From NCBI RefSeq assembly GCF_023169545.1, contig NZ_AP019769.1:180001-212000 (forward strand): a DNA stretch of 32,000 bases, in the 5' to 3' direction. This document shows positions 2,685 through 27,806 of this stretch, piece by piece. Under the pieces are notes generated by a model that saw only the letters and a list, made by a program, of their open reading frames with translations, searched no databases and was not told the DNA's origin. Positions within the stretch are counted from its first letter, which is position 1. Each line of letters opens with the position of its first letter. Origin of the DNA: Nanobdella aerobiophila. GTDB taxonomy: Archaea > Nanobdellota > Nanobdellia > Nanobdellales > Nanobdellaceae. The translations under genes were made by a program, and so were the position numbers.

Positions 2685-3770
2685 TTATATTTGTGGATAG
2701 TTTAATGTTTTTATTCCATAGTCTGAAAAATGTGTTCTACAACCATTATTTTTATCTAATATATATTCAAGTTTTGGGAGATCTTTTTTATAAAAAGAAG
2801 ATATCTTTCTTATATCATAATAATATGGTAAGTCTATCTTTGAGTCACAGCTTATAATTCTGTCCATTATCTTTTTTTCATCTTTATCAAGATCTATAAT
2901 ATTTTTATTCTCATTAATTTTTTTTAAGAATTCTTCATCATACATATTTCCTGCATATATAGGTCCTAGTTTAATCATTTTATTTCCGCATATTTTACAT
3001 GTCTCTTCTTCGAAAGATTTATATCCACAGTTTTTACAATAATTAATATATTTTATATTCTCTGACAAGTAATTTAATGTATTGCTTTTATTATTTTTAA
3101 TAAAAAATACCCTATAATGATGTTTATAATAATATCCAAATATTGGCTTTAATCCAATATAATATTTTAATCCTTCTAATATAACATATTTTATTAATGC
3201 TCTTAAGCCAAATTCTAGATAGAAATCAGTTTTAATGCCTATTATATTATATTTTCTATATGCAGCTTTAGATTTAGATCCAGATAATGCGGAAATGTCA
3301 GTAGCAGTTACTCCTAAAATACCATTATTTCTTAAGGCTTGAGGAGTTAACTCTACAAAACCAATGGGAGACCCAAATGGATCTATATCTATATAGTCAT
3401 ATTTATTTCTTAATAATAGAGATCTACAATCTTGATTTTCCAATAATATATTTTCTCCTATTTCTATATTATTTATTCTTAAATTCTCCTTTATATTTTC
3501 TATAGCTTCTTTTTTTATATCATTTATATATATTTTATTTATTATTTGAGGTATCTCTTTTATGATCCTAATAGATCTTATTCCTGTAGCACTCATACAA
3601 TCTAGAATATCTATTTTCTTATTATATATATCATAATATGATTTTAATAATAATATTGTAAAATCTCTATTTATCTTCATCAAAGGATTATAAAATACAG
3701 GTAATTTTGATGAAAGGTTATTTAAAAAATCTTTATTATAATTTATTGTAGCTTTTCCTTCATTCATCAA
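2685..3770 (-). CDS. trm1: tRNA (guanine26-N2)-dimethyltransferase Trm1
   Basis: N-terminal VFYNPLMKINRDF (Trm1 hallmark), SAM-binding ILDCMSATGIRSIR, IDIDPFGSP motif, C-terminal Cys4 finger CKNCG...CKICG. 361 aa. Confidence 0.9.
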   Translation of the reverse strand: MMNEGKATINYNKDFLNNLSSKLPVFYNPLMKINRDFTILLLKSYYDIYNKKIDILDCMSATGIRSIRIIKEIPQIINKIYINDIKKEAIENIKENLRINNIEIGENILLENQDCRSLLLRNKYDYIDIDPFGSPIGFVELTPQALRNNGILGVTATDISALSGSKSKAAYRKYNIIGIKTDFYLEFGLRALIKYVILEGLKYYIGLKPIFGYYYKHHYRVFFIKNNKSNTLNYLSENIKYINYCKNCGYKSFEEETCKICGNKMIKLGPIYAGNMYDEEFLKKINENKNIIDLDKDEKKIMDRIISCDSKIDLPYYYDIRKISSFYKKDLPKLEYILDKNNGCRTHFSDYGIKTLNYPQI

Positions 3771-4715: not shown

Positions 4716-5432
4716 TTAATATCTTTTTAAATTTTCTTTAGAAATCCTGAAAACACCCATCAAAAGAGAGTATTCTCTTTTTGATAAAAAAGATTTACCT
4801 ACTAGATTCTTAAAACCTCTATATATTACTGGTTTTTTATATTCTTCTGTTGGTAATACCTTTAGAAACTCTTTAAACATCATGTATAAATTTGATTTTT
4901 CAAGATTATTTATTAATTTAAATCTATTTCTTATGGGGTTATTTTTAGATAAAAATAGTTCATAGAGTATTATTGCTGCAGAATGTGTTATATTCATTAT
5001 TGGAAAATTCTCATCTGCTGGTATAGTTATTATGCTGTCAAATTTGTTTAATTCGTAATTATTAAAGCCGTTTGCTTCTCTACCAAAAAATATACCAATA
5101 TCTCCAGATATATTATTTATTATACTTGATAGCTCTCTTGGTGTAATAGGGTTTCTTAATAATTCGCTTCCTTTTTTTGAAGATACCCCCGTGGTTCCAT
5201 AACATATGTCAAATAATGATACGACTTCTTCAAAATCTTCGTATATTCTTGCATTATTTATTATCTTCCATCCTTCTTTTCTAGATACAATCTTTACTTT
5301 TTCAGATTTATAATCTACCTTGGGATTTATTATTATCAAATTATGAAATCCAAAATTTGACATTACCCTCGCTAGGGCGCCTATATTTTCTTCAGATTCA
5401 GGTTCAACAAAGATTATTGTTATATTGCTCAT
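4716..5432 (-). CDS. SpoU/TrmH-family RNA 2'-O-methyltransferase (archaeal TrmJ-like)
   Basis: IIFVEPESEENIGALARVMSNFGF (SPOUT motif 1), FGREANGF (motif 2), IPADENFPIMNITHSAAIILYE (motif 3). 4-bp overlap with aspS. Confidence 0.8.
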   Translation of the reverse strand: MSNITIIFVEPESEENIGALARVMSNFGFHNLIIINPKVDYKSEKVKIVSRKEGWKIINNARIYEDFEEVVSLFDICYGTTGVSSKKGSELLRNPITPRELSSIINNISGDIGIFFGREANGFNNYELNKFDSIITIPADENFPIMNITHSAAIILYELFLSKNNPIRNRFKLINNLEKSNLYMMFKEFLKVLPTEEYKKPVIYRGFKNLVGKSFLSKREYSLLMGVFRISKENLKRY

Positions 5433-6785: not shown

Positions 6786-7454
6786 TTACTTTAAATTTTT
6801 CATTTTTATATCAATCATTGCATGTATTTCTTTATATATTATTGTTAGTTTTTTATTATAATCTATATCATCTTTTAGGTTATATACAGATAAAAAAGGA
6901 TATTTTTTGTAATTATTTATCTTTTTCTTTAATAATTTTTCTATTCTATTCATATTATCTTTTATTTCAGTTTCTAATTTTACTCTTAGTTTATCATATC
7001 CAATATCTAAATTAAAGTATCTTTTTGTATAATAATCTATAACTAATATAGGTTTTTCAAATGCATATAATATTATTGCATCTGCGGTTTCTTTTCCTAT
7101 ACCATGAATATCTAATAACTCCTTTCTAATATAATCTACTCTATTATTTATATCTATATTTTCTATAGAATCTGCAATATTTTTTATAGTTTCTAATTTT
7201 CTTGACTTAAAGGGAACTTTTATATAATTTATATCTAAGTTTTTCAAATTGTCTATATTAAATATAAAGTTTTTTGATTTTAAATATTCTATATTTTTTT
7301 CTACAAAAGACCATTTAGTATTCTGAGTTAATATAGCTCCTAATATGACTTCAATTTTCCAGTCACCTCCTGTTTTGATATGGTAGTTCAAATCTACAGG
7401 CCACCAAAGTTGTACATTACTTTCTTTAACCAATTTTATAATATTTTCTATCAT
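6786..7454 (-). CDS. HhH-GPD superfamily DNA glycosylase, endonuclease III-related (no Fe-S cluster)
   Basis: Helix-hairpin-helix LLDIHGIGKETADAIILYAF followed by VIDYYTKRYF (Asp at the expected catalytic spacing). ILTQNTKW motif. No cysteines at all, so no 4Fe-4S loop. Confidence 0.75.
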   Translation of the reverse strand: MIENIIKLVKESNVQLWWPVDLNYHIKTGGDWKIEVILGAILTQNTKWSFVEKNIEYLKSKNFIFNIDNLKNLDINYIKVPFKSRKLETIKNIADSIENIDINNRVDYIRKELLDIHGIGKETADAIILYAFEKPILVIDYYTKRYFNLDIGYDKLRVKLETEIKDNMNRIEKLLKKKINNYKKYPFLSVYNLKDDIDYNKKLTIIYKEIHAMIDIKMKNLK

Positions 7455-9565: not shown

Positions 9566-9877
9566 TTATTCAACCTTTTCGACTTTTACCTTTTCATCCT
9601 GTTTTATCTCTTCTGGCTCCGGTTCTTCACCAGATTTTATTGAGTATACAGCTTTAGAGATAATCCATATTTGTCCCATTGCTTTTACCAATTGGTGTGG
9701 AGCTATAATTCCCTTTATCCCTCTTTTTATCAGATCTTGATCTAGTACTCTAATTTTCCATCCATAAATTTTATTACCCGATATAATAGCATCTTCTACT
9801 TCCCCTAAGAAGTATCCGTCTTCAGTATATATCTTTGCATTTATTGTCTCAGATATTTTTTTAATATTTAATGCCAT
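9566..9877 (-). CDS. PRC-barrel-like small protein with acidic C-terminal tail
   Basis: AKIYTEDGYFLGEVEDAIISGNKIYGWKIRV fits the PRC-barrel pattern (V.t.dG..lG.v.D..id...i..l.v). Tail is SGEEPEPEEIKQDEKVKVEKVE. The track ORF extends to 9973 but that would overlap the cdc48 start. I use Met-33 (ATG complement at 9877). Confidence 0.5.
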   Translation of the reverse strand: MALNIKKISETINAKIYTEDGYFLGEVEDAIISGNKIYGWKIRVLDQDLIKRGIKGIIAPHQLVKAMGQIWIISKAVYSIKSGEEPEPEEIKQDEKVKVEKVE

Positions 9878-9952
9878 AAGAGAAAATAATCTATTAGATA
9901 ATTTAAAGTTTTCTATATTTATATTTAAAAGATATCTGTTGATATAGTATCT

Positions 9953-12346
9953 ATGGATAATAATTCGAACCATGAAGATGTTCCTGAAGTAAAAATGAAG
10001 GTTGCAGAGGCATTACAGAATGATTTATATAAAGGTATTGTTAGATTGGATACTGAAGCTATGAAAAAGATTGGTATAAGAATTGGAGATGTAGTAGAAA
10101 TAGAAGGTAAGAAAAAAACAGTTGCTATTGCCCAAATGTTGCCTCCAGAAGATTATGGGCTAGGAATTATTAGAATGGATGGTATTATTAGGAAGAATGC
10201 TAATGCAACATTGGGGGGATATGTGACAGTAAGAAAAGCTTCAGTTAAAGAAGCTCAAAAAATAATATTAGCTCCATCATCTAAAGGTGTAACCTACCAA
10301 TTTTCTCCAAGTTATATAAATTATATAAAAAGGTTATTAATTGGTAGAGCTGTATTAAAGGGAGACAATTTGGTTATAGTTCCAAGTTATAGGAAGAAAT
10401 TTGATTTATTAGATGATTTTGAGATTACATTTGTTGAAGGTTTATTTTCTATGGGATTTTCGAATGAATTAAGGTTGACTGTAGTAAATGGTCTACCAAA
10501 GGGAGCATTAGTAATTACAGAAAACACAGAAATAGAATTATTACCTCATGCTGTAGAATCGAAAGGAGAGCTACCTGAAGTAACTTATGAAGATATTGGT
10601 GATATGGATGAGGTTGTACAAAAAGTAAGAGAATTAGTGGAATTGCCATTAAAATATCCAGAATTATTTGAAAGGCTTGGCATAGACCCACCAAAAGGTA
10701 TATTATTATATGGACCTCCAGGTACAGGTAAGACTTTATTAGCAAAAGCCGTAGCAAATGAGAGTGGAGCATATTTTATAGCAATTAATGGACCTGAAAT
10801 TGTTTCTAAATATGTCGGGGAAAGTGAAAAGAAATTGAGAGATATATTTGAAGAAGCTAATAAAAATGCACCTGCGGTAATATTTATAGATGAGATAGAC
10901 GCAATAGCTCCTAAAAGAGATGAGGCAGTAGGAGAAGTAGAAAGAAGGTTAGTTGCCCAATTATTGACCTTAATGGATGGTTTAAAGGCAAGGGGTAAGG
11001 TAATAGTCATAGCAGCAACTAATAGACCTGATGCTGTAGATCCAGCATTAAGAAGACCCGGAAGGTTTGATAGAGAAATAGAGGTACCAGTTCCAAATGA
11101 ACATGGTAGATATCAAATATTGAAGGTACATACAAGAAATGTTCCTATAGGAAAAATAGTAGAAGATAATGGAAAAAAGATATATACTTTATTAAATGAA
11201 AAAGAAAAAGACGAATTGATAAGAAAGTTGGCATCTATAACATACGGCTACGTAGGTGCAGATCTTTCTGCTTTAGTTAAAGAAGCAGCTATGAATGTTA
11301 TTAGAAGGATATTACCAGAAATTGAAAGATATGGAGATAAAATACCAGATGAACTATTAGAGCAGATGGTTGTTACAGAAGAAGATTTTATGTCTTCATT
11401 AAAATTAGTTCCACCATCTGCAATGAGGGAAGTATTGGTAGAAGTTCCGAAGGTTAGGTGGAATGATATTGGAGGATTAAAGGAGATAAAACAGCAATTA
11501 AAAGAATCGATAGAATGGCCAATAAAATATAGAAAAATATATGAAAAAGTAGGCATAGACCCACCAAAAGGTATATTATTATATGGACCTCCAGGTACAG
11601 GTAAGACTTTATTAGCAAAAGCCGTAGCAACGGAAATAGGTGCAAATTTTATAGCTATAAAAGGACCTGAAATATTCTCAAAGTGGTTTGGAGAGAGCGA
11701 AAAAATGGTTAGAGAGATATTTAGAAAGGCTAAACAAGTAGCACCCTCCGTGATATTCTTTGATGAAATTGATGCGGTAGCACCAAGAAGAGGAATAGCA
11801 CATAGTATAGATGTATATGATAGTATAGTAAATCAATTATTAGCAGAAATGGATGGTATTACGACAAAAGGAGATGTAGTTACAATAGCAGCAACTAATA
11901 GACCAGATATATTAGATCCAGCATTATTAAGACCTGGAAGACTTGATAGAATAATATATATACCAGCGCCAGATTATGAATCAAGATTGGAAATATTAAA
12001 GATAAAAACTAGGAGTGTACCACTAGCTAAAGATGTTAGTTTAGAGGAGTTGGCTAGGATAACTGAGGGTTATAGTGGTGCAGATTTAGAATTATTAGTT
12101 AAAGAAGCAGCTATGAATGGACTTAGAAAAATATATAATGAAATTAAGCTTGACAATGATAGTGATCAAGAAACTCTGAAGAAAATAGAAGCATTAAATA
12201 TATTTATAACTATGAGCGATTTCAGAGAAGCACTGAACAGGGTCAGACCATCAATAACTAAAGATATGGAAAATTATTACAAAACCTTCACAGAAACATT
12301 TAGAACTAATATATTGAATAATAATTCAAATAAGTATTATGGATAG
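9953..12346 (+). CDS. cdc48: Cdc48/VCP/VAT-type AAA+ ATPase (N domain + D1 + D2)
   Basis: N domain LKVAEA-like start ([31 protein letters not shown]). Two AAA modules each with [15 protein letters not shown] Walker [19 protein letters not shown] Walker [19 protein letters not shown] second region of homology. C-terminus ends KYYG (HbYX-like). An alternative start is Met-14 (9992). Confidence 0.95.
10679..10757 (+). repeat. 79-bp perfect direct repeat, copy 1 (Cdc48 D1 Walker A region)
   Basis: ggcatagacccaccaaaaggtatattattatatggacctccaggtacaggtaagactttattagcaaaagccgtagcaa is identical base-for-base to 11552-11630. Confidence 0.95.
11552..11630 (+). repeat. 79-bp perfect direct repeat, copy 2 (Cdc48 D2 Walker A region)
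   Basis: Identical to 10679-10757. The offset is 873 bp (291 codons), so the copies are in frame. Both encode [26 protein letters not shown]. Confidence 0.95.
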
Positions 12347-13043
12347 TTTTTTTATTTCTCAAAGATTATTTTTTGGCGATAAATTAAATGAAAGAATTTT
12401 TAATTCTTCAGCTACGATAGTTGGTTTAGGGGGTTTGGGGTCTTGGATAGCGGAAATTTTAACTAGAATTGGTATAAAAAGGTTAAATCTTGTAGATTTT
12501 GATATTGTTGAAGAAAAAAATTTGAATAGGCAAAATTTCACTTTAAAAGATAGGAAGAAATACAAAATTGATGCTATAGAGGAAAGATTAAAGGAGATAA
12601 GAGAGGATATAGATATAAAAAAATATCAAAAGATTCATGATGATATTTTTGATACTGATATATTTTTTGATGCAGTGGATGATATAAATACAAAATTTTT
12701 ATTAAACGAATACTCTGTTTATCTAAATAAACCTTATATATTCGGGTCTGTTGTTATGTCAGAGGGGTATGTAGGTTTAATAAATCCAAAGGATTTTTGT
12801 TTTTATGACATATTCTCTAACAAAACTAACTTTATGACCTGTAATTTGTATGGTGTAGATCCTGCTTCTGTAATATTCGCATCATCTTTAATGGTTGAAT
12901 TATTTTTAAAATATTTAGACAGATATAATAATGGAATTCTATATCATTTTAATCTAAAAAGATTTGATTTGTATGAAGTAAAGGTTAGGAAAAATAATTG
13001 TAAAATATGTGTAAGGAAGGAATATGAAAGAATATGGAAATAA
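12339..13043 (+). CDS. ThiF/MoeB/HesA-family E1-like adenylyltransferase
   Basis: Rossmann/ATP motif IVGLGGLGSWIAEILTRIGIKRLNLVDFDIVEEKNLNRQ aligns with E. coli ThiF IIGLGGLGTPAALYLAGAGVG..DDDDV..SNLQRQ. Candidate catalytic-loop Cys in MTCNLYGVDPA. C-terminal CKIC. The first zinc CxxC is degenerate (FCFYD). ATG lies inside the last codons of cdc48 (8-bp overlap). Confidence 0.8.
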   Translation: MDSFFISQRLFFGDKLNERIFNSSATIVGLGGLGSWIAEILTRIGIKRLNLVDFDIVEEKNLNRQNFTLKDRKKYKIDAIEERLKEIREDIDIKKYQKIHDDIFDTDIFFDAVDDINTKFLLNEYSVYLNKPYIFGSVVMSEGYVGLINPKDFCFYDIFSNKTNFMTCNLYGVDPASVIFASSLMVELFLKYLDRYNNGILYHFNLKRFDLYEVKVRKNNCKICVRKEYERIWK

Positions 13044-13861
13044 TAGATATAATAAATGAAATAAAGAAGAAAGATAATCTAAGAAATGTTTCTGATAAGG
13101 TAGTTGAAAATATAGTAAGGAAGGAATTAAAAAAGAGGCCATATTTATATGATAGACTATATAATATAAGAAACGTAAAACAATTAAAAAATGATCCAGA
13201 TTTTTATTTATTTTTTAAAGAAGTAAGAAAAATATTACATGATATATATGAAGTATTTTCTATTGACCAAAATATTCAAAATATTATATTTGATGAAGAA
13301 TTAAGTCTAGAGCAGAAGATAATTAACCTACTAATGTCAGCTAAATCTACAGCTGAAAGGTTAAATTTCTATAAAGAAGTATATGAAAATATATTTATAG
13401 ACGAACCAGATGAGATACTGGATCTTGCTTCAGGTTTGAATCCACTATCTATATTTTTTTCTGATAAAAAGCCCAATAAATATTATTATACGGATATTTC
13501 TGAAGAAATACTTGATATAAATTATCAGATTTTAAATATTCTGAATGTAGATAATGAAGGTTGGTTGATAGATCTATTCGAACCAGATGAAAGAATATAC
13601 AAACATTATCAATACATATTCTTTTGGAAAATATTTCCTTTATTGGAAAAATATGATTATTATTTACCAAGGAATATAATAGCAAATCTAGATTTTGATT
13701 ATTTAATTATTTCATTTTCACAAAAAAGTATCGGAAAAAGGAAGAATATAGGATTAGCATGGAGATATAAAATAAAAAGGTTCTTCCTATATAAATTAAA
13801 TTATAAAATAATAAAAGAATTTGATATACCTTATGAGTTTTTTATGATTGTAAAGAAATAG
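13034..13861 (+). CDS. FmrO-family (ArmA/RmtB-like) putative 16S rRNA (guanine-N7) methyltransferase
   Basis: Segment-by-segment resemblance to ArmA/RmtB as I recall them. N-terminal KKKDNLRNVSDKVVENIV vs ArmA KKYENLDSDIVEKVV. SAKSTAERL..FY..VYENIF vs HSSTNERVATLNDFYTYVF. SAM motif ILDLASGLNPLS vs LDFGCGFNPLAL / LDIACGLNPLAL. FFWKIFPLLEKYD vs FLLKMLPVLKQQD. LIISFSQKSIGKRKNIG vs FVISFPIKSLSGKEKGM. 10-bp overlap with the E1-like gene. Not verified by any search. Confidence 0.6.
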   Translation: MEIIDIINEIKKKDNLRNVSDKVVENIVRKELKKRPYLYDRLYNIRNVKQLKNDPDFYLFFKEVRKILHDIYEVFSIDQNIQNIIFDEELSLEQKIINLLMSAKSTAERLNFYKEVYENIFIDEPDEILDLASGLNPLSIFFSDKKPNKYYYTDISEEILDINYQILNILNVDNEGWLIDLFEPDERIYKHYQYIFFWKIFPLLEKYDYYLPRNIIANLDFDYLIISFSQKSIGKRKNIGLAWRYKIKRFFLYKLNYKIIKEFDIPYEFFMIVKK

Positions 13862-14192
13862 CATTTTTAATATTTAATATATCATTTTTATTATATATAT
13901 CGAGATTATTTTCATTAAATATCCATACTTCTATATCTATATTTTGAGATTTTTCGTAATATTTTACTAAATTATATAGTTGGTATAAATCCATATAATT
14001 TATATTATGTAATTTTATTTTTTTTCTGTTCCTCTTTACTTGTATAAGTTTTATTTTACCATCTCTACTTAGTGCTATAATATCTATAGGAGAATGAGAA
14101 CCTGGAGTCCTCCAGGTAGTATAACCCTGTTTTTCCAAAATACTTTTTACTTTTCTTTCATAATAATATCCTATTTTATAGTTGTTTGCCAT
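13842..14192 (-). CDS. hjc: Hjc-family Holliday-junction-resolvase-like nuclease (PD-(D/E)xK fold, QxK variant)
   Basis: GYYYERKVKSILEKQGYTTWRTPGSHSPIDIIALSRDGKIKLIQVKRNRKK parallels Sulfolobus/Pyrococcus Hjc (..ER.....L...GF.V.R..GS...D..A......L.IExK). E12, D37 and K53 are present, but the ExK glutamate is Q51 (codon CAA, complement of 14040-14042). Its 3' end overlaps the convergent methyltransferase gene by 20 bp. Confidence 0.7.
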   Translation of the reverse strand: MANNYKIGYYYERKVKSILEKQGYTTWRTPGSHSPIDIIALSRDGKIKLIQVKRNRKKIKLHNINYMDLYQLYNLVKYYEKSQNIDIEVWIFNENNLDIYNKNDILNIKNAISLQS

Positions 14193-17200: not shown

Positions 17201-17804
17201 ACATAATTTCGATACAGTCTGGAATTATCCACTGGAGTTATATTATAATGGATTAGAGTATAGGCCAGCAGATTCTATAAAAATACAAATATATAAAGAT
17301 AGATTAAATAAGGAAGATGAATATACTAATTGGGGTTTTATGCATGATATAGATTCTATAAGTAATGAAGGGAATACAGAATCTGCGTATAAGTTTTTGG
17401 GAGAGATGTTAGAAAAATTAAATTTTGAATTGAAATTATCAAGATTATTAAGATCTGTTGATCCTGTTGTAGTTGCAAATTTAGTAATAAATCTACATTT
17501 TGCTAGAGATATAAAAGGAAATCTAAGAAAATTTTCTGAGCAAGAGTTTAGATGCATAAAATGTAATACTAAGTATAGAAGAATCCCGCTATCTGGGAAA
17601 TGCATAAGATGTAATGGAAAAATTGTAATGACTGTTACATATGGCAGCGTTATAAAATATTTAGAGCCTAGTTTATGGCTATCTGAAAATTTACATTTAG
17701 ATGAATATACATCTTCAAGTCTTAGGGCTTTAAAAGAGAAGATTGATGAAACATTTGGAAATGTATCTAAGGAAAGGAAATTAAAAGATTTCTTTAATAT
17801 ATAA
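14244..17804 (+). CDS. polC: DNA polymerase II (PolD) large subunit DP2
   Basis: 1186 aa with no intein. Conserved DP2 blocks YYAGPVRSAGGTPQA, RGGAMLVLAEGI, AGRPIFSLPS..GGFRLRYGKSRTNG, GLRMGRPEKA, LAPHTSAGVVGRIIGF, NCDGDEGG (catalytic double-psi barrel acidic motif), GGMMDAPL. Zn fingers CPNC..CIFC and CIKCN..CIRCNG. Confidence 0.95.
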   Translation: MNDMDQYFSDIRKKTLEAYELAKKARLLKLDSTDDVEIPISEDMSERIVNLLSNIDPIIKEINLPEKIREIEKQYKALSFATILKIADYVSEQIYNKTKDKLRAIDLGIRSAFTYHTLGVVAASTEGIIKVISKKRRDNKEYLSIYYAGPVRSAGGTPQAFSVVVADLLRKKFGYEKWDPDNDEVQRYVIEVYDYKRMAHLQYTPKKEELEFVLQNLPIEINGEATLESEVSGYKDLPRIETNFIRGGAMLVLAEGICQKAGKIWKKLEPVAKDFNLEDWKWLSDYKKLQERIYSSSSDSGEKIKPNSKYLAQLTAGRPIFSLPSAKGGFRLRYGKSRTNGHEASSIHPAAAALTYNFLAWGTQIAVERPGKASAVTFSDTIEPPVVKLKDGSVKKIYSEKIAKELIDKNLVEKILFLGDILFTYGDFLDNGHILVPVGYCEEWWVLEFEKNAKEKLKDFEVVFDMLKPRKMFEIKNLDKLSDYLNIDKSKLEGYIRDPLRIKPDLIDSLKISLLLDVPLHPLYTYFWKDISADDIIYLLNYIKDNSKIDIEKIKIGDKEVNIARRIEINYDENVKRILEEILIEHNLENNKIIINYPDSAAFYLQVGYINDIPSKGAENNGYEIISRVSVLKIRDKVGTYIGLRMGRPEKARIRELTGSIVVLFPVGKEGGRMRNLMESRNYGKILADLKLYYCPNCKIYVPYRKCIFCKSDTKLLNTEDNKTHKVYNIDIGKYIEAALKNLNMDSSQVPKIIKGPEGLSSKDKEPERLEKGILRAKYGVFVFRDGTTRFDAIEVPITYFKPKDLLFTPIEKLKELGYTRDIYGNPLENEEQILELKPQDIILPIVGPYKKAGKIKMDGFLRSLINTTRFLDEELERLYNLPKYYNVDRPEDLLGHLLIVLAPHTSAGVVGRIIGFSKTQALLMHPLMHAGIRRNCDGDEGGFILLLDALINFSKNYLPEKRGGMMDAPLTITLKLKGMEVDDEVHNFDTVWNYPLELYYNGLEYRPADSIKIQIYKDRLNKEDEYTNWGFMHDIDSISNEGNTESAYKFLGEMLEKLNFELKLSRLLRSVDPVVVANLVINLHFARDIKGNLRKFSEQEFRCIKCNTKYRRIPLSGKCIRCNGKIVMTVTYGSVIKYLEPSLWLSENLHLDEYTSSSLRALKEKIDETFGNVSKERKLKDFFNI

Positions 17805-18535
17805 TGTTTATTTTATCTGGTATTGGTAATAATATAGATGAAATTCCAATTGGTTTGATTAATAATATAAAAGATGCGGATCTAGTATTTTTAGAATATT
17901 ATACAAACTTTGTAGATAATAGTATATTAAAATATCTATTAAATATAAATAGTAATATAAAATTGATTGATAGAGATTTTGTGGAGTATAAATTAGAAAA
18001 TATAATATTGAATAATAAAGATAAGAAAATAATATTAATAGTGTCGGGAAATCCTCTATTTGCTACTACACATTTTTATTTTATTGAATTATGTAAGAAA
18101 AATAATATAAATTTTAAAATAATAAATTCAGCTTCTGTATTTGATGAAGTTGGTAAAACAGGTTTGTTCTTATATAAATTTGGTAGAATAATATCTGTTC
18201 CATTTCATGAATCTACAGATTTTTATGATAATATAATAAATAACTATAGAAATAATTTACATACATTATTATTATTGGATTTAGATCCAAAGAATAATAT
18301 TTATCTAGATCATAAAGAAGCTATAAGGAAGATAATGAATTTAGATAAGAATAGAGTGTTTAATGAAGATTTTAAGTTAATAGTATGTTCCAAATTGAAC
18401 AGGGACGGTGAAAAAATATATTATGACTCTATAAGAAATCTAATGAATATGAATATAGAGCCACCTTTATGTATAATAATACCGTCAAATTTAAATAAAA
18501 TAGAAGAGGATTTTTTATCATGTATGATATCTTAA
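17804..18535 (+). CDS. dphB: diphthine synthase (DphB/Dph5, tetrapyrrole-methylase fold)
   Basis: MFILSGIGNN...ADLVFLEYYTN, VSGNPLFATTH, LYKFGRIISVPF, HTLLLLDL are typical diphthine synthase blocks. The ATG shares one base with the polD stop (TAATG). Confidence 0.85.
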   Translation: MFILSGIGNNIDEIPIGLINNIKDADLVFLEYYTNFVDNSILKYLLNINSNIKLIDRDFVEYKLENIILNNKDKKIILIVSGNPLFATTHFYFIELCKKNNINFKIINSASVFDEVGKTGLFLYKFGRIISVPFHESTDFYDNIINNYRNNLHTLLLLDLDPKNNIYLDHKEAIRKIMNLDKNRVFNEDFKLIVCSKLNRDGEKIYYDSIRNLMNMNIEPPLCIIIPSNLNKIEEDFLSCMIS

Positions 18536-19587: not shown

Positions 19588-20136
19588 TCCTTTTTTATAT
19601 TTTTTTATAAATATAATCCAAAATATTACTAAGAACATAGTTGTAAATATTTCCCATAATACATTATGTACAAAATATGGGTTTAAATTAAATCTTACAT
19701 ATAGAAAAAATACAGACCATAATCTAAATATATTTAGAATATATAATATTAAGCTTGAATAGATAAAATACATAATCTTATTTCTTATATTTAATATAGG
19801 TGTAGAAAATATCATTGCAAATATAGCAAATACAGATTTAAATCCTGTACATTCTTGATCTATTATAAAATTTACAGAGCCTACATGTAATGTATTGGCA
19901 GTTAATATATATTCTATATTTGATAATGTTAATATATATCCTATAAATTTAGAATAAGATAATAAAAATGATTGTGGTAATATAATATAATAATAGCTAA
20001 ATAAAGATAAAGGTATAGAATAAATTAACATATTTAGAAAAAATATAGCAATTATTAATTCTTTTCTTATCATCTTACTTTTCATAGATTCTTCAATTAT
20101 ATTAGGAAAATATTTTTTTATTATATATTCAAACAT
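19576..20136 (-). CDS. exosortase/archaeosortase-family protein (minimal, 186 aa)
   Basis: Polytopic membrane protein carrying the family's catalytic-triad context. Cys in IIDQECTGFKSVFAIF, Arg in LNIFRLWSVFF, His in YFVHNVLWEIF, in the canonical order and spacing (C..about 40 aa..R..about 20 aa..H). Confidence 0.65.
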   Translation of the reverse strand: MFEYIIKKYFPNIIEESMKSKMIRKELIIAIFFLNMLIYSIPLSLFSYYYIILPQSFLLSYSKFIGYILTLSNIEYILTANTLHVGSVNFIIDQECTGFKSVFAIFAMIFSTPILNIRNKIMYFIYSSLILYILNIFRLWSVFFLYVRFNLNPYFVHNVLWEIFTTMFLVIFWIIFIKKYKKGLVI

Positions 20137-20611
20137 GTTTTATTTTAACTGCTAAACCATATTTAAAGTCTTTTATTTCCTTTGCCGATAGGAGTGTTTC
20201 ACCAATAGCCAATAATTTATCATATCTATTTACTATTAATACAATATCTCTGGATAATATATTTTCATCAATATTTACTATAAATTTTGAGAATACAGAT
20301 TTACCTTTTAATATGTAGTCTTCTGCCTCTTCGTTTACAACAACTCTATACTTTGGAAATTCTAAAAATTTTTGCAAAATCTCACCGCCATATTTTGTTA
20401 TTATTATATATCCTGTACTTGGTTCTATAGATCCAAATAGCTTATTATTGATAAATATTCTTTTTATTCTATGGGTTTTTCTACTCTTTTCTAATTGTAT
20501 ATTTTCATAGCTTTCTAGAATCTTATCTCCAACTTTACTGCCAAATTGGTAATTTAATATAGATTTAATTATTAATGAATCCATACCAGTATAATACGAA
20601 CTTTGCTGCAA
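20129..20611 (-). CDS. stand-alone PUA-domain protein resembling the C-terminal (C2 + PUA) half of archaeosine tRNA-guanine transglycosylase
   Basis: ILNYQFGSKVGDKIL matches the (A)DYQFG.g.g..lf block of the ArcTGT C-terminal region. C-terminal PUA pattern VVVNEEAEDYILKGKSVFSKFIVNIDENILSRDIVLIVNRYDKLLAIGETLLSAKEI..GLAVKIKHV. The start may be Met-10 (20584), which would reduce the 47-bp overlap with the upstream gene. Confidence 0.75.
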   Translation of the reverse strand: MQQSSYYTGMDSLIIKSILNYQFGSKVGDKILESYENIQLEKSRKTHRIKRIFINNKLFGSIEPSTGYIIITKYGGEILQKFLEFPKYRVVVNEEAEDYILKGKSVFSKFIVNIDENILSRDIVLIVNRYDKLLAIGETLLSAKEIKDFKYGLAVKIKHV

Positions 20612-21149
20612 TTTCTTCGCCTATTATAGAATTATTATTTTCTAATAATATTGTATTATTTTCTGGGTATAAATATATTCCATAACTTTTATTTGTTGGT
20701 ACGAGATATATTAATAAAGTATCATTTAATGGTATATAATAATATTTATACTGATTATTATAGTATTGGTATAATAATATTGTATTATTTTCTATAGAAT
20801 TATTTTCTAAAAAGAATGTACAACCATTACTATATCCAAAACAAGTTGGTATAATATTTGGGATCTTCAAATCTATATATAATAGCTCTGCATTATAATA
20901 TCCAGTTAAATTAGGATTGAATAATAATAAATATATAGATTTATTATTAATTATACTATATATCGATATATTTGGATATATATTTATATTAGATAGCTGA
21001 TCTATAGAATAAGGACTAGCAATAGTTATATTATCTTTATTATAGTAATATATATTTTTGTGATTATAATATGATTTATATAATATATATATTATAAAGA
21101 TTAGAAATGCAATAAAAATAATCATACTTATTATCTTGTCCTTTTTCAT
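20565..21149 (-). CDS. N-terminally membrane-anchored, Tyr/Asn-rich putative surface protein with about 10 N-x-S/T sequons
   Basis: MKKDKIISMIIFIAFLIFIIYILY is a signal-anchor. The ectodomain has NIT, NIS, NKS, NLT, NNS, NNT, NDT, NKS, NNT, NNS sequons and two Cys. First gene of a three-gene overlapping unit with the PUA protein and the archaeosortase-like protein. No family recognised. Confidence 0.5.
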   Translation of the reverse strand: MKKDKIISMIIFIAFLIFIIYILYKSYYNHKNIYYYNKDNITIASPYSIDQLSNINIYPNISIYSIINNKSIYLLLFNPNLTGYYNAELLYIDLKIPNIIPTCFGYSNGCTFFLENNSIENNTILLYQYYNNQYKYYYIPLNDTLLIYLVPTNKSYGIYLYPENNTILLENNNSIIGEEIAAKFVLYWYGFINN

Positions 21150-24191: not shown

Positions 24192-24725
24192 ATGCCAGAA
24201 TATGAAATTATACCTCAAGATCCAATAGATAAATTAACACAAGAAATAGAGAATTTAAAAACGGATTTAAGGGAGTTGAAGGGACAACTAAAAGATAATA
24301 TTGAAAATATAAAAAGAGAACTCTCTCTACCAAATGAAAATAATCCATTATTAAGAAAGGAAGTTAATTATTCTCAAAATTTTTCTGTGGATATATCATT
24401 TTACAAGGAGATTGTAAATTCATTAATTAAAAGTAATGTGGATTTACAGGCTAAAATATCTGAATTGGTAGTAGTTTCAAATAATTTGTATAGAGAAATA
24501 AAGAATCTGCTAGATATATTTAAAGAGGCGGCAATTTCTAGAAAAGAGGCCAAGAATGATAATAATTTGAATAATGTAGATATATTAAAAAGATTAGAAA
24601 ATTTAGAAAAAGCAAATTTGAAAATAGCAGAACTGTTAGATAGCTTTAAAAAATATATGGATAATTCAAAAGATAATAATGTAAAACCAGTAACAAATAA
24701 TAATCCATTATATAGAAAGATATAA
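24192..24725 (+). CDS. coiled-coil protein (177 aa), first gene of the pilus-like cluster
   Basis: Heptad-like stretches LTQEIENLKTDLRELKGQLKDNIENIKREL and ILKRLENLEKANLKIAELLDSFKKY. No TM segment and no recognised family. Confidence 0.5.
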   Translation: MPEYEIIPQDPIDKLTQEIENLKTDLRELKGQLKDNIENIKRELSLPNENNPLLRKEVNYSQNFSVDISFYKEIVNSLIKSNVDLQAKISELVVVSNNLYREIKNLLDIFKEAAISRKEAKNDNNLNNVDILKRLENLEKANLKIAELLDSFKKYMDNSKDNNVKPVTNNNPLYRKI

Positions 24726-24749
24726 AAACATTAGATGTAAATATATCTT

Positions 24750-25580
24750 ATGAAAAAAGGCCAATCTAATTTAGTGAGTTATCTTTTACTAGGTTTAATT
24801 ATAGTAGGTCTGTCCGTTGGTATTTATGAGTGGGGTATCCCAGTTATACAAAAATCTCAGTTAAAGACTTCAATAAGTGGTATACAGGCTTCATTAACTA
24901 CATTGGCTAGTACTATACAAGATGTGGCGGAAAGTAAAGGTAGTCAGGTGGTATCAATATCTTTGCCTTCTGGACCATTGAATATAAATTACAATGATAT
25001 ACAATATTCATTTCAATCTCCAGAAATATACTACAATCCATCTGTACCTGCAATACCAATAAATTATAATATATTCATACCTTGTACTGTAAATAATACA
25101 TTGACTATAAATGGCGGAGTAGTTAATTTATGTGGTTTACCAGGACTAGAGGCATATGCAAATAGTACAAATATAGTATTAACAGATATAAATAATAATA
25201 CAATAATCCTGCCATTGGAAAATATAAATAACTTAATTACAGAAGAATATGTATTTAATGTTAAGGTTAGTAATAATCAGGTAGATTTTATACCAGAATA
25301 CAATACTGGTGTAGCAAACTCCCAGTATTATCCCGCCTGTTTATTAACTGCTGTTCAATTGGGTAAGGAGATTGAGTATCAGATAGAGTGTAGACCAATG
25401 TATAATCCACAAAATGGTCAGTGTACATGGATTAATATAGTTCCGGCAGGGCAGACAGGGACTACTGCTTCTGGAACTGTAAATATAAATCTACAATATA
25501 ATGGTATAAATGTAGAGAATGTAAATTCTACAATATGTAATCAATTAATCTTATATAATATAGAAGCTTCTATATCTTAA
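24750..25580 (+). CDS. class-III-signal-peptide (archaeal type IV pilin-like) secreted protein, 276 aa, 6 Cys
   Basis: N-terminus MKKGQS-NLVSYLLLGLIIVGLSVGIY: short basic leader, Gly then Gln, then one hydrophobic helix, as in archaeal prepilins (Gln at +1 recalls DUF361-type pilins). The rest is Ser/Thr/Asn/Gly/Pro/Gln-rich with 6 Cys, very unlike the Lys/Glu/Ile-rich cytoplasmic proteins here. Confidence 0.55.
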   Translation: MKKGQSNLVSYLLLGLIIVGLSVGIYEWGIPVIQKSQLKTSISGIQASLTTLASTIQDVAESKGSQVVSISLPSGPLNINYNDIQYSFQSPEIYYNPSVPAIPINYNIFIPCTVNNTLTINGGVVNLCGLPGLEAYANSTNIVLTDINNNTIILPLENINNLITEEYVFNVKVSNNQVDFIPEYNTGVANSQYYPACLLTAVQLGKEIEYQIECRPMYNPQNGQCTWINIVPAGQTGTTASGTVNINLQYNGINVENVNSTICNQLILYNIEASIS

Positions 25581-25972
25581 TGGTAGAGAATGCATTTGAA
25601 ATAACTTTAATTACTTTAATACTATTTTTTACTTCCATTATAATAGTTACTCTTTTTAGAGATATAACCAATGTAAATAATTATGATGAATTTACTTTAA
25701 ATTATATAGGTAATAATATATATTTGTGTGTTAATCTTGCTTATCTATATAACTTATCTAGTATATACTGTAATCCATCTAGTAATTATAATTTTTTTGT
25801 GTCTTCTACAGGAAAAAATCTTTATGTTCAATATTCTAATATAGAAAAAATATATAATTTATATCAAGGCTATTCGTACTCTCCTTTATATGGAGAGAGT
25901 GAGGACTCTTTTTATATAATATACAATAATAAGACATCTATAGTCGATAGAGGATATTATATAGAATCATAA
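25580..25972 (+). CDS. small protein with N-terminal hydrophobic helix (possible minor pilin / FlaF-G-like accessory), 130 aa
   Basis: MVENAFEITLITLILFFTSIIIVTLF followed by a Tyr/Asn/Ser-rich domain with 2 Cys. The ATG shares one base with the preceding stop (TAATG), implying co-expression. Confidence 0.4.
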   Translation: MVENAFEITLITLILFFTSIIIVTLFRDITNVNNYDEFTLNYIGNNIYLCVNLAYLYNLSSIYCNPSSNYNFFVSSTGKNLYVQYSNIEKIYNLYQGYSYSPLYGESEDSFYIIYNNKTSIVDRGYYIES

Positions 25973-26006: not shown

Positions 26007-27806
26007 ATGGATATTGATGAATTTATTGATTCTGTACTTGATACTGTAAAGAAAAAAATTGAATTAAAAAATAAATTAAATCAAGGAGGATTTAGAATCG
26101 AAAAAATAAATACCAATATAGCTGGTAGTTCGCAAAATAGTAATCAAATAATTCCTATATTACAAACATATCCATATAAACCAAAAAAATTCAAAAAGAA
26201 AGCTAAAAAATTAAATAAAGATATAAATTTATTGAGTATTCCAGTAGCAGGTCAGAGAAAAATAACAGATAAGGATAAATTAAAATTTTTTATAGATTTA
26301 TACGGAGTAAATAATGAGGAAAATGAATATAGATACCCACTAACAAAAATGAGAGTCCTTAATAAGGATTTTATATTCTCTTATGCTGATATTTCTATAG
26401 ATCAAAATTTAAATGAATTAGTGTATAATGTTGTTGAAGTACCAATAACTGTACAAGAAAAAAATATAATAGACTATGTTATAGATAAATTAATTAAAAG
26501 AATTGAAATACCAGAGAATAGGGAAAATGATTTTGATAGGATGAAGGATTATATAGTTGAGGAATCGATTAATATATTAAAAGAAAAGGGGGTAAAGATA
26601 ACTAATCAAAGATTACCATATATATTATATTATATTATCAGAGATACAATTGGTTATGGTATAATAGATCCTCTCATGAGAGATCCATATATAGAGGATA
26701 TATCATGTAATGGTATTGATATACCAATATTTATTTTCCATAGAAATCCATTGATCGGTGAGATTAAAACAAACATAAAATTTAATTCTGATATAGAACT
26801 AGATAATTTTGTCATAAAGTTATCGGTAAGAACAGGAAGAATGATATCTATATCAAATCCACTATTAGATGCAGCACTACCAGATGGTTCTAGACTCCAA
26901 ATTACTTTTGGTAAAGATATATCTAGAAAAGGTTCATCATTTACAATAAGAAAGTTTACAGAAGATCCATTTACGCCTGTAGATTTATTATTATATGGTA
27001 CAGCAGATACAAATATGTTAGCATATTTATGGACATTAATAGAAGAAGGAAGATCTTTGTTAATATCGGGAGGTACAGCAACTGGTAAAACTTCTTTTTT
27101 AAATGCAGTTTCCTTATTTATTAAACCAGGTAAAAAGATAATATCTATAGAGGATACTGCAGAATTAAGATTACCCCACTCTAACTGGTTACAAGAGGTA
27201 GCAAGGCCAGGATATGGTCCGAATAGGTATGGAGAGGTCAGTATGTTCGATTTATTAAAAGCTGCATTAAGACAAAGGCCGGATTATATAATTGTTGGTG
27301 AGGTTAGAGGTGAAGAGGCATATATATTGTTCCAAGCGATGGCTACAGGTCACGCAGGTTTAAGTACAATTCACGCAGAGAGTATAGAAGCATTGACTGA
27401 TAGGCTATTATCTCCTCCAATAAATTTACCTCCCTCTCTATTAGAGATATTGGATGATGTAATATTTTTGAAAAGAATAAGATATCAGGGTAGATATGTA
27501 AGAAGAGTAGATAAGATATATGAAATTTTAGGTTATGACAAAGAAAAGAAGGATATAAATAGAGTAGTATCATATTATTGGGACCCGAAAGATGATTCAT
27601 ATATTCCTCAAAATAGTAATGTATTAAATAAGATAGCAGAATTAAGAAACTGGTCTAAAAGCGATATAGAAACTAACTTTAAATTTAAGATTAGAGTATT
27701 GGAATATATGTTTGAGAATAATGTGAGAGATTATAAAAAAGTAGGAGAAATATTAGATATGTATTATAATGATACAGATAAGTTGATTAGATTAGTAGGT
27801 TTTTAG
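26007..27806 (+). CDS. FlaI/PilB/GspE-superfamily secretion ATPase (archaeal type IV filament assembly ATPase)
   Basis: DPYIEDISCNGIDIPIFIFHRN (archaeal FlaI-like block), Walker A ISGGTATGKTSFLNA, Asp box, Walker B PDYIIVGEVRGEEA, His box ATGHAGLSTIHA. 599 aa with a Lys-rich N-terminal extension of roughly 100 aa (KPKKFKKKAKKLNK). Confidence 0.85.
   Translation: MDIDEFIDSVLDTVKKKIELKNKLNQGGFRIEKINTNIAGSSQNSNQIIPILQTYPYKPKKFKKKAKKLNKDINLLSIPVAGQRKITDKDKLKFFIDLYGVNNEENEYRYPLTKMRVLNKDFIFSYADISIDQNLNELVYNVVEVPITVQEKNIIDYVIDKLIKRIEIPENRENDFDRMKDYIVEESINILKEKGVKITNQRLPYILYYIIRDTIGYGIIDPLMRDPYIEDISCNGIDIPIFIFHRNPLIGEIKTNIKFNSDIELDNFVIKLSVRTGRMISISNPLLDAALPDGSRLQITFGKDISRKGSSFTIRKFTEDPFTPVDLLLYGTADTNMLAYLWTLIEEGRSLLISGGTATGKTSFLNAVSLFIKPGKKIISIEDTAELRLPHSNWLQEVARPGYGPNRYGEVSMFDLLKAALRQRPDYIIVGEVRGEEAYILFQAMATGHAGLSTIHAESIEALTDRLLSPPINLPPSLLEILDDVIFLKRIRYQGRYVRRVDKIYEILGYDKEKKDINRVVSYYWDPKDDSYIPQNSNVLNKIAELRNWSKSDIETNFKFKIRVLEYMFENNVRDYKKVGEILDMYYNDTDKLIRLVGF

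Follow-up and report, generated by a model that had tools for sequence, protein, structure and literature searches.

The genome of Nanobdella aerobiophila, a cultivated thermoacidophilic ectosymbiotic archaeon of the phylum Nanobdellota (formerly Nanoarchaeota), was analysed over a window of 32,000 nucleotides (contig NZ_AP019769.1, positions 180,001 to 212,000 of the forward strand). Coordinates below refer to this window unless another locus is named. The open reading frame (ORF) at 13034-13861 on the forward strand is a complete coding sequence of 275 amino acid residues and a stop codon. According to the ORF list, the Pfam match PF07091, the AlphaFold model and the Foldseek search, it encodes a class I S-adenosylmethionine (SAM)-dependent methyltransferase of the FmrO/Arm-Rmt family, the 16S rRNA methyltransferases that form 7-methylguanosine at G1405 (m7G1405). 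By analogy with the characterized members, the enzyme probably carries out a constitutive N7-methylation of the G1405-equivalent in the small-subunit (SSU) rRNA, as a housekeeping modification rather than an acquired resistance. The broader proposal is that an old and large Arm/Rmt clade of DPANN archaea (Nanobdellota), core in minimal genomes, installs this constitutive m7G, and we give it about an even chance of being right. The ORF begins with ATG. The start is conserved, since ME(I/L) or MD(L) opens all eight Nanopusillaceae orthologs.

The Pfam family PF07091 (FmrO) is the sole Pfam match of the protein. It covers residues 99-238 and scores 37.4 bits (E = 2.5e-9), the gathering cut-off being 27. 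The NCBIfam model Rmt_gen matches residues 61-273 (E = 2.2e-27), and the subfamily models RmtB to RmtH give 23-41 bits against cut-offs of 500-550. In a phmmer search of the PDB, RmtC (4e-7) and Sgm (1e-6) were detected. A profile built from 30 archaeal homologs gave much lower E-values against the PDB: Sgm 1.6e-41, RmtC 1.5e-36, RmtF 3.3e-33, ArmA 9.9e-32 and RmtB 1.9e-29. The next match, PH0226, reached only 7e-5. These results show that the protein belongs to the FmrO/Arm-Rmt family, although its identity to the Rmt, Arm and Sgm proteins is only about 20%. The Kam/NpmA family, which modifies A1408 to m1A, was considered and rejected, as it gave no match in the Pfam, NCBIfam, phmmer, Foldseek or clade-profile searches.

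The AlphaFold2 model of the protein (mean predicted local distance difference test score, pLDDT, of 84; predicted template-modelling score, pTM, of 0.80) consists of a helical N-terminal domain and a class I Rossmann domain. This two-domain fold superposes on the solved family members. In the Foldseek search of the PDB, ranks 1 to 16 are all m7G1405 methyltransferases (Sgm, RmtC, RmtB, ArmA and RmtF). The alignments to Sgm, RmtC, RmtB and RmtF run over the whole length (278-301 columns) with template-modelling (TM) scores of 0.61-0.80, and that to a truncated ArmA chain covers 192 columns (TM 0.52/0.71). Generic class I methyltransferases rank after these, with TM of about 0.44. An earlier note, made from the sequence alone, had compared the protein with ArmA and RmtB and had claimed an alignment along the whole length; the Foldseek alignments bear this out. 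The strings that it quoted were also correct. The RmtB string is 100% identical over 251 residues to PDB entry 3FRH, and the ArmA string matches PDB entry 3FZG for residues 58-257. The note had named the FmrO profile and a structure comparison as checks. Both were run, and in the latter (Foldseek and the clade profile against the PDB) the best matches were the ArmA/RmtB/Sgm enzymes and not an unrelated class I methyltransferase.

In order to compare the protein with RmtC residue by residue, functional residues were taken from the cryo-electron microscopy and mutagenesis study of RmtC on the 30S subunit (PMC10288597) and from the study of Sgm (PMC2896518), and were mapped through a MAFFT alignment of 86 sequences. 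All of the motifs listed in the earlier note are present where it placed them. They are KKKDNLRNVSDKVVENIV (residues 11-28), STAERLNFYKEVY (105-117), the SAM-binding motif I ILDLASGLNPLS (128-139; 13415-13450), WKIFPLLEK (198-206) and ISFSQKSIGKRKNIG (226-240). All the features of the protein described here lie on the forward strand.

The C-terminal Rossmann-fold catalytic domain spans residues 103-275 (13340-13858), as defined by the beta-alpha pattern, Pfam and Rmt_gen. The SAM-binding residues S107, R111, D134, D160 and D188 of RmtC correspond to S105, R109, D130, D154 and D180. S105 and R109 belong to the STAER motif (residues 105-109; 13346-13360). RmtC S107 and R111, and Sgm R108, bind the SAM carboxylate, and the Sgm R108A mutant does not bind SAM (PMC2896518). 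D154 (13493-13495) aligns with RmtC D160 and Sgm D156, which contact the SAM ribose hydroxyls, and D180 (13571-13573) aligns with RmtC D188 and Sgm D182, which contact the adenine. The SAM triad of Sgm, R108, D156 and D182, is therefore retained as R109, D154 and D180. In motif I, D130 and G134 are invariant in the archaeal and bacterial homologs, G134 being also identical to the references, and the Cys of this motif is replaced by Ser.

The residues that position G1405 in RmtC, K204, Y60 and K236, correspond to K199, F75 and K231. K199 (13628-13630) aligns with the lysine that contacts N7 of the flipped G1405. A lysine occupies this position throughout the 86 sequences: in 9 of 9 Nanopusillaceae, 49 of 49 other DPANN sequences, 23 of 23 bacterial homologs and the five references. 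The residues that distort helix 44 (h44) of the rRNA, RmtC R211, R241 and M245, correspond to K206, which lies near K199, to R236, and to I239 or L241. R236 belongs to the loop KSIGKRKNIGL (residues 231-241; 13724-13756), which is equivalent to RmtC K236 and Loop237-246. Here K231 matches K236, G234 matches S239 and R236 matches R241; whether I239 or L241 matches M245 depends on the alignment, and so does the length of the loop, which comes out one residue shorter or longer. The Gly at the position of RmtC S239 is shared with producer enzymes such as Sgm. In the model, residues 232-236 form the only segment with a pLDDT below 50. The RmtC loop passes from a disordered to an ordered state, and does so only on 30S binding, and the low pLDDT fits a loop of this type.

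The N-terminal helical subdomain, residues 1-75 (13034-13258), is equivalent to the 30S-docking subdomain N1 of RmtC according to the model and the alignment to RmtC, RmtB and ArmA. Its helices in the model are residues 3-10, 21-33, 36-44, 48-52 and 55-72. The helix that carries K62, R65 and H69 and leads to F75 (13217-13258) corresponds to RmtC K47, R50, H54 and Y60. In RmtC, K47, R50 and H54 serve in rRNA docking and in the distortion of helix 45 (h45), and Y60 stacks between SAM and G1405 (PMC10288597). K62, R65 and H69 are invariant in Nanopusillaceae. A fourth docking residue, RmtC R39, is kept as K34. The phmmer alignment had placed the K62-H69 helix on RmtC subdomain N2 (K71-H78). This register was rejected for the N-terminus, because the clade-profile and MAFFT alignments give RmtC K47-H54-Y60 with exact spacing. 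The RmtC-specific N2 residues K67 and R68 are absent from the protein, as they are from RmtB and ArmA.

Of the positions whose mutation abolishes the activity of RmtC or Sgm, K47, R50, H54, R111, D160, D188, K204, K236 and R241 are identical in the protein, and R39, R211, M245 and Y60 (at which the aromatic ring is kept as F75) are conservatively replaced. S107, a SAM-carboxylate contact for which no mutant is reported, is also identical.

What was observed in this work is the family, the fold, the conserved residues, the selection, the synteny and the position in the tree. We infer the substrate, the modified position and the biological role of the enzyme by analogy with 30S-bound RmtC. In the proposed mechanism, the helical N-terminal domain would use K34, K62, R65 and H69 to dock on the assembled small subunit, at the rRNA surface that h24, h27, h44 and h45 form. 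The K231-L241 loop and K206 would then force apart the top of h44, and would flip out the guanine equivalent to G1405. F75 would stack the flipped base against SAM, which would be held by S105, R109, D130, D154 and D180, and K199 would position N7 for the methyl transfer that yields m7G. As a by-product, the modification would bring intrinsic insensitivity to 4,6-disubstituted deoxystreptamine aminoglycosides.

The target site was examined in Nanoarchaeota-type SSU rRNAs, which were pulled from metagenome contigs by a 3'-end signature that we take to be the Nanoarchaeota-specific primer 1511mcR. Five contigs were obtained, three of them with complete SSU rRNA, and one SSU rRNA gene, flanked by sequence of about 25% GC, sits on a contig of 759 kb. 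The loci examined (L081, 3025-3186, forward; L082, 4027-4200, reverse; L085, 4630-4791, forward) retain G1405:C1496, U1406, C1407, A1408, A1492, A1493, U1495 and the GGGGAA loop of h45, and C1409-G1491 is changed to a compensated U-A pair. In N. aerobiophila, the stretch around the G1405-equivalent would be expected to read ...CACCGCCCGUCA..., and the archaeal SSU consensus of Rfam has a conserved upper-case G at this position. The presence of the target G in Nanoarchaeota-type rRNA is indicative only. As a separate observation, all three loci carry U1498A and A1499C, in a part of the decoding centre that is otherwise nearly universal. U1498 is the site of a methylation (m3U) in E. coli.

Several points weigh against m7G1405 as the product. 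The 16S loci are not tied to the family of the window, the sole gene family that they have in common with it being about 40% identical. Our literature search found no report of m7G in nanoarchaeal rRNA and none of a tested archaeal enzyme. The NCBIfam Rmt equivalog model NF000466 gives 96 bits, which is far under its cut-off of 250, so by these scores the protein is to be classed as a distant homolog and not as an Rmt equivalog. The docking subdomain carries an insertion of about 20 residues (residues 36-57; 13139-13204), seen in the alignment and in the model, where it forms, between helices 2 and 3 of N1, a pair of short helices with pLDDT of 84-89. The insertion is present in most archaeal homologs, and is absent from RmtC, RmtB, ArmA, the bacterial homologs shown and the basal archaeal homolog L080; with it, the docking geometry may differ. 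The docking residues K20 and Y21, which are essential in RmtC, are lost (N15 and L16), and a basic cluster, K11-K13, lies one or two positions upstream of the lost motif. RmtC H105, of the near-universal motif H-x-S-T-x-E-R, is A103 here (13340-13342) and Ser or Thr in the relatives, the His being missing in all Nanopusillaceae. RmtC G58 is E73 (13250-13252) in this species only; a Gly is present in 8 of 8 other Nanopusillaceae, 43 of 49 other DPANN sequences and 19 of 23 bacterial homologs.

The remodelling of the N-terminal recognition domain is the ground for an alternative, in which an active SAM-dependent methyltransferase of N7-guanine (or another position) has shifted to another nucleotide of the SSU or large-subunit rRNA, or to tRNA. 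The insertion and the loss of the K20-Y21 motif in the archaeal clade fit such a shift, given that K20E and Y21F cripple RmtC (PMC10288597). The replacement of H105 in Nanopusillaceae and the unreached equivalog threshold point in the same direction. Husain et al. (2010; PMC2896518) also left open whether NEQ545, the ortholog from Nanoarchaeum equitans, shares the Arm function. However, K34, K62, R65 and H69, the h44-distorting loop, and K199, K231 and F75 at the G1405 contact are all kept, and the rRNA elements contacted by those residues are conserved in archaeal SSU rRNA. Neither Pfam nor Foldseek gave a comparable match to any other family. We consider a shifted target unlikely.

The distribution of the gene bears on its role. 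A word-indexed search detected 88 homologs with 50-71% identity, all from Nanopusillaceae or from metagenome-assembled genomes (MAGs) and isolates of Nanoarchaeota, including N. acidilobi and strain YN1; the full-length ones all carry PF07091. An exhaustive search with a hidden Markov model (HMM) yielded 1,135 cluster representatives at E = 1e-3 or better. The Nanopusillaceae group stands apart in that search, with 493 bits against 153 bits or less for the rest. In a scan of the GTDB species genomes, at least 531 loci were confirmed. The best 80 of these at least 531 loci comprise 8 from Nanopusillaceae, 49 from other archaea and 23 from bacteria. The 49 other archaea are labelled mostly as Woesearchaeota, Nanoarchaeota or Nanoarchaeia, 11 as 'uncultured Methanosarcinales' and 3 only as 'archaeon', and the 23 bacteria are mainly Chloroflexota, with some Planctomycetota and one clostridial genome. 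Only four complete genomes of thermophilic Nanobdellota are available according to a 2026 preprint, and the gene is found in all four: N. equitans (NEQ545), N. acidilobi, YN1 and N. aerobiophila. Besides these thermophiles, 208 complete Nanobdellota genomes have been reported (bioRxiv 10.64898/2026.05.13.725050). Pairs with unsaturated dS give a ratio of nonsynonymous to synonymous substitution rates (dN/dS) of 0.04-0.09. The gene is under strong purifying selection.

A phylogeny with the bacterial enzymes, proposed in the earlier note, was built by neighbour joining with RmtC, RmtB, RmtF, ArmA and Sgm as references. In 99 of 100 bootstraps, the tree splits the 57 archaeal sequences from the 25 bacterial and reference ones. 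The Nanopusillaceae form a clade (100 of 100) nested within the archaeal group, and all archaeal sequences in the tree are DPANN by label or by tree position. Homologs were also found in MAGs deposited as 'uncultured Methanosarcinales archaeon' (third-party annotation assemblies; L012, L016, L022, L024, L030, L035, L039, L040, L062 and L075). They nest among Woesearchaeota and Nanoarchaeia, and most have 30-46% GC, L039 being the oddest with 57%; the Methanosarcinales labels of these MAGs look doubtful. L080 and L063 form a small basal archaeal clade. The L080 gene (4001-4762) is without the N1 insertion and retains the bacterial-type 'KKY' loop motif. As intermediates, L080 and L063 could link the bacterial forms to the main archaeal ones, the state of the insertion and the motif having been read in L080 only.

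The gene is tightly packed. The stop of a ThiF-family gene (12339-13043, forward), whose product is E1-like, overlaps the methyltransferase start by 10 nucleotides, and the two genes are probably co-transcribed. A short convergent gene for an Hjc/Mrr-like resolvase (13842-14192, reverse) overlaps the 3' end by 20 nucleotides. Both overlaps are kept in eight Nanopusillaceae genomes. Seven of the eight species genomes of Nanopusillaceae keep the order S9, ORF, Cdc48, ThiF, FmrO, Hjc (reverse) and PolD-DP2. At the remaining locus, L004, which is truncated on the upstream side of Cdc48, the stretch from Cdc48 to PolD is retained. A functional tie to the ThiF or Hjc gene was considered and rejected, since the order is shared only by close relatives that share the whole region. 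In the more distant locus L009, PolD is the sole neighbour that still adjoins the methyltransferase. The gene has a GC content of 22.6%, which matches its neighbours (the mean of the window is 26%). No mobile element was seen, and the window holds no antibiotic biosynthesis context and no rRNA or tRNA gene.

Three features of the gene make the housekeeping role the most likely one in our view: in genomes of 0.5-0.8 Mb, it belongs to the core, keeps its gene order and is under strong constraint. The earlier note had preferred such a role to an acquired resistance, and the synteny, the low dN/dS, the presence in four of four genomes and the separate archaeal clade all fit this preference. To our knowledge, no aminoglycoside producers have been described from the hot acidic springs where Nanopusillaceae live, which also makes the housekeeping role more likely. 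The earlier note had further suggested a new archaeal rRNA modification, and we advance this as a hypothesis.

The same m7G1405 chemistry might instead be kept as an intrinsic protection against aminoglycoside-like compounds from community members or hosts. All characterized family members are resistance or self-protection enzymes, and homologs are common in DPANN archaea of sediment and groundwater and in Chloroflexota, that is, in complex communities. Moreover, the Nanoarchaeota-type decoding site examined above has A1408 and a paired 1409-1491, which is the bacterial-type drug-binding configuration. Against this, no producers are known to us from the hot acidic springs, and a gene that is core, syntenic and vertically inherited, and that persists in archaeal genomes among the smallest known, is unlike typical resistance genes. 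We regard protection as quite unlikely.

For a catalytically dead protein kept as a ribosome-binding or assembly factor, we found no positive evidence beyond the changes at two otherwise conserved positions, G58 to E73 and H105 to A103. The clade shows no variation at the SAM-binding residues or at the catalytic lysine, all of which are intact, and purifying selection acts over the whole protein. This explanation is very improbable. The earlier note had offered horizontal acquisition as its alternative. A recent transfer would have had a bacterial source, such as an aminoglycoside producer or a resistance plasmid. In its favour, the family was first known from bacteria only, and Husain et al. 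(2010; PMC2896518) put NEQ545 near the pathogen-derived group. Recent transfer is effectively refuted by the separation of the archaeal sequences in the tree with Nanopusillaceae nested among the DPANN homologs, by the identity of only about 20% to the Rmt, Arm and Sgm proteins, and by GC and synteny that match the host genome. The tree split, the GC match, the conserved synteny and the low dN/dS together argue for an old, vertically inherited and constrained gene.

An archaeal homolog of this family is not new. The earlier note was not aware of a described archaeal role; the homolog itself, however, was described in 2010 by Husain et al. and listed in 2013 by Podar et al., so that it has been in the literature since 2010, and it is already named in databases: UniRef and NCBI label the Nanobsidianus orthologs 'rRNA (guanine(1405)-N(7))-methyltransferase'. 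Husain et al. (PMC2896518) called NEQ545 the 'first archaeal ortholog' of the Arm family and described intact catalytic C-terminal motifs and a diverged helical N-terminal domain lacking one N-terminal helix. In Podar et al. (PMC3655853), the Arm homolog is one of 15 Nanoarchaeota signature genes and the sole functionally assignable one. The protein of the window is of the same phylum and gene family as NEQ545 and the ortholog of Nst1 (Ca. Nanobsidianus stetteri), both of which were described as strongly diverged Arm members, and it is 69-70% identical to the Nanobsidianus orthologs P0049 and P0058. By its published description NEQ545 lacks one N-terminal helix, whereas the N. aerobiophila protein carries the extra N1 insertion of about 20 residues, as do most DPANN homologs. 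What is added here is the size and coherence of the archaeal clade, the residue-by-residue comparison with the RmtC-30S complex, and the evidence of vertical, constrained inheritance.

Among the characterized enzymes, RmtC of Proteus mirabilis (PDB entries 6PQB, 6CN0 and, with 30S, 8GHU) shares the two domains with the protein over the whole length (TM 0.61-0.69). It differs in sequence (about 20% identity), in its K20 and Y21, and in lacking the N1 insertion; RmtC is plasmid- or transposon-borne and gives resistance, whereas the gene of the window is chromosomal, core and archaeal. Sgm of Micromonospora zionensis (PDB entries 3LCU and 3LCV) is both the top profile match and the top structural match (TM 0.73-0.76). 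It is a bacterial self-protection m7G1405 methyltransferase from a high-GC actinomycete aminoglycoside producer, and is linked to antibiotic biosynthesis. Uncharacterized m7G1405 methyltransferase homologs of Chloroflexota are also on record (Nosrati et al., 2019; bioRxiv 10.1101/712810). Like the gene of the window, they are chromosomal. Their hosts include no pathogen and no known producer of aminoglycosides, and roles other than resistance are therefore suggested. They differ from the archaeal protein in lying on the bacterial side of the tree, in having the (K/R)Y motif and in lacking the N1 insertion.

If the enzyme makes a constitutive m7G1405, this would be the first case of a 'resistance' methylation as a normal part of the ribosome. 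A housekeeping m7G1405 would be the first in any organism and a new modification of the archaeal decoding centre. The clade-specific N1 insertion would adapt the docking to the archaeal subunit. The clinical resistance enzymes would then have sister enzymes with an ordinary ribosome-tuning role, which would bear on the origin of the globally spreading ArmA/Rmt resistance enzymes. The question of a constitutive m7G1405 is directly testable, as co-cultures exist for N. aerobiophila (strain MJ1, with Metallosphaera sedula), N. equitans, N. acidilobi and YN1. As far as the present analysis shows, the hosts of these nanoarchaea are without the gene, which would suit them as internal negative controls.

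Other genes of the window were also annotated. Archaeal core proteins include a Hef-like helicase-nuclease, Trm1, a class II tRNA synthetase of the Asp/Asn/Lys type, the ribosomal proteins L18e, L13 and S9, Cdc48, PolD DP2, a thermosome subunit, an FlaI-type ATPase and an Mre11-like phosphoesterase. Three more methyltransferase-type genes lie in the same 32 kb: Trm1 (tRNA m2,2G; 2685-3770, reverse), a SpoU-family 2'-O-methyltransferase (4716-5432, reverse) and a TP_methylase-family protein, probably diphthine synthase (17804-18535, forward). RNA and translation modification is thus well represented in this reduced genome. A stand-alone ORF of 159 residues (20129-20608, reverse) has only the TGT_C2 and PUA domains. 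Its domain content suggests that it is the C-terminal portion of an archaeosine tRNA-guanine transglycosylase split in two, whose N-terminal catalytic part is absent from the window. N. equitans has a split gene of this kind.

ORFs of 130-276 residues without a Pfam match are found at 24192-25972 (forward) and at 6786-7454, 9566-9973 and 20565-21149 (all reverse). The ORF at 9566-9973, of 135 residues, is conserved across Nanopusillaceae. The region 24192-25972 consists of three consecutive ORFs directly upstream of the FlaI/T2SSE-type ATPase gene (26007-27806), and these may encode archaellum or pilus components.

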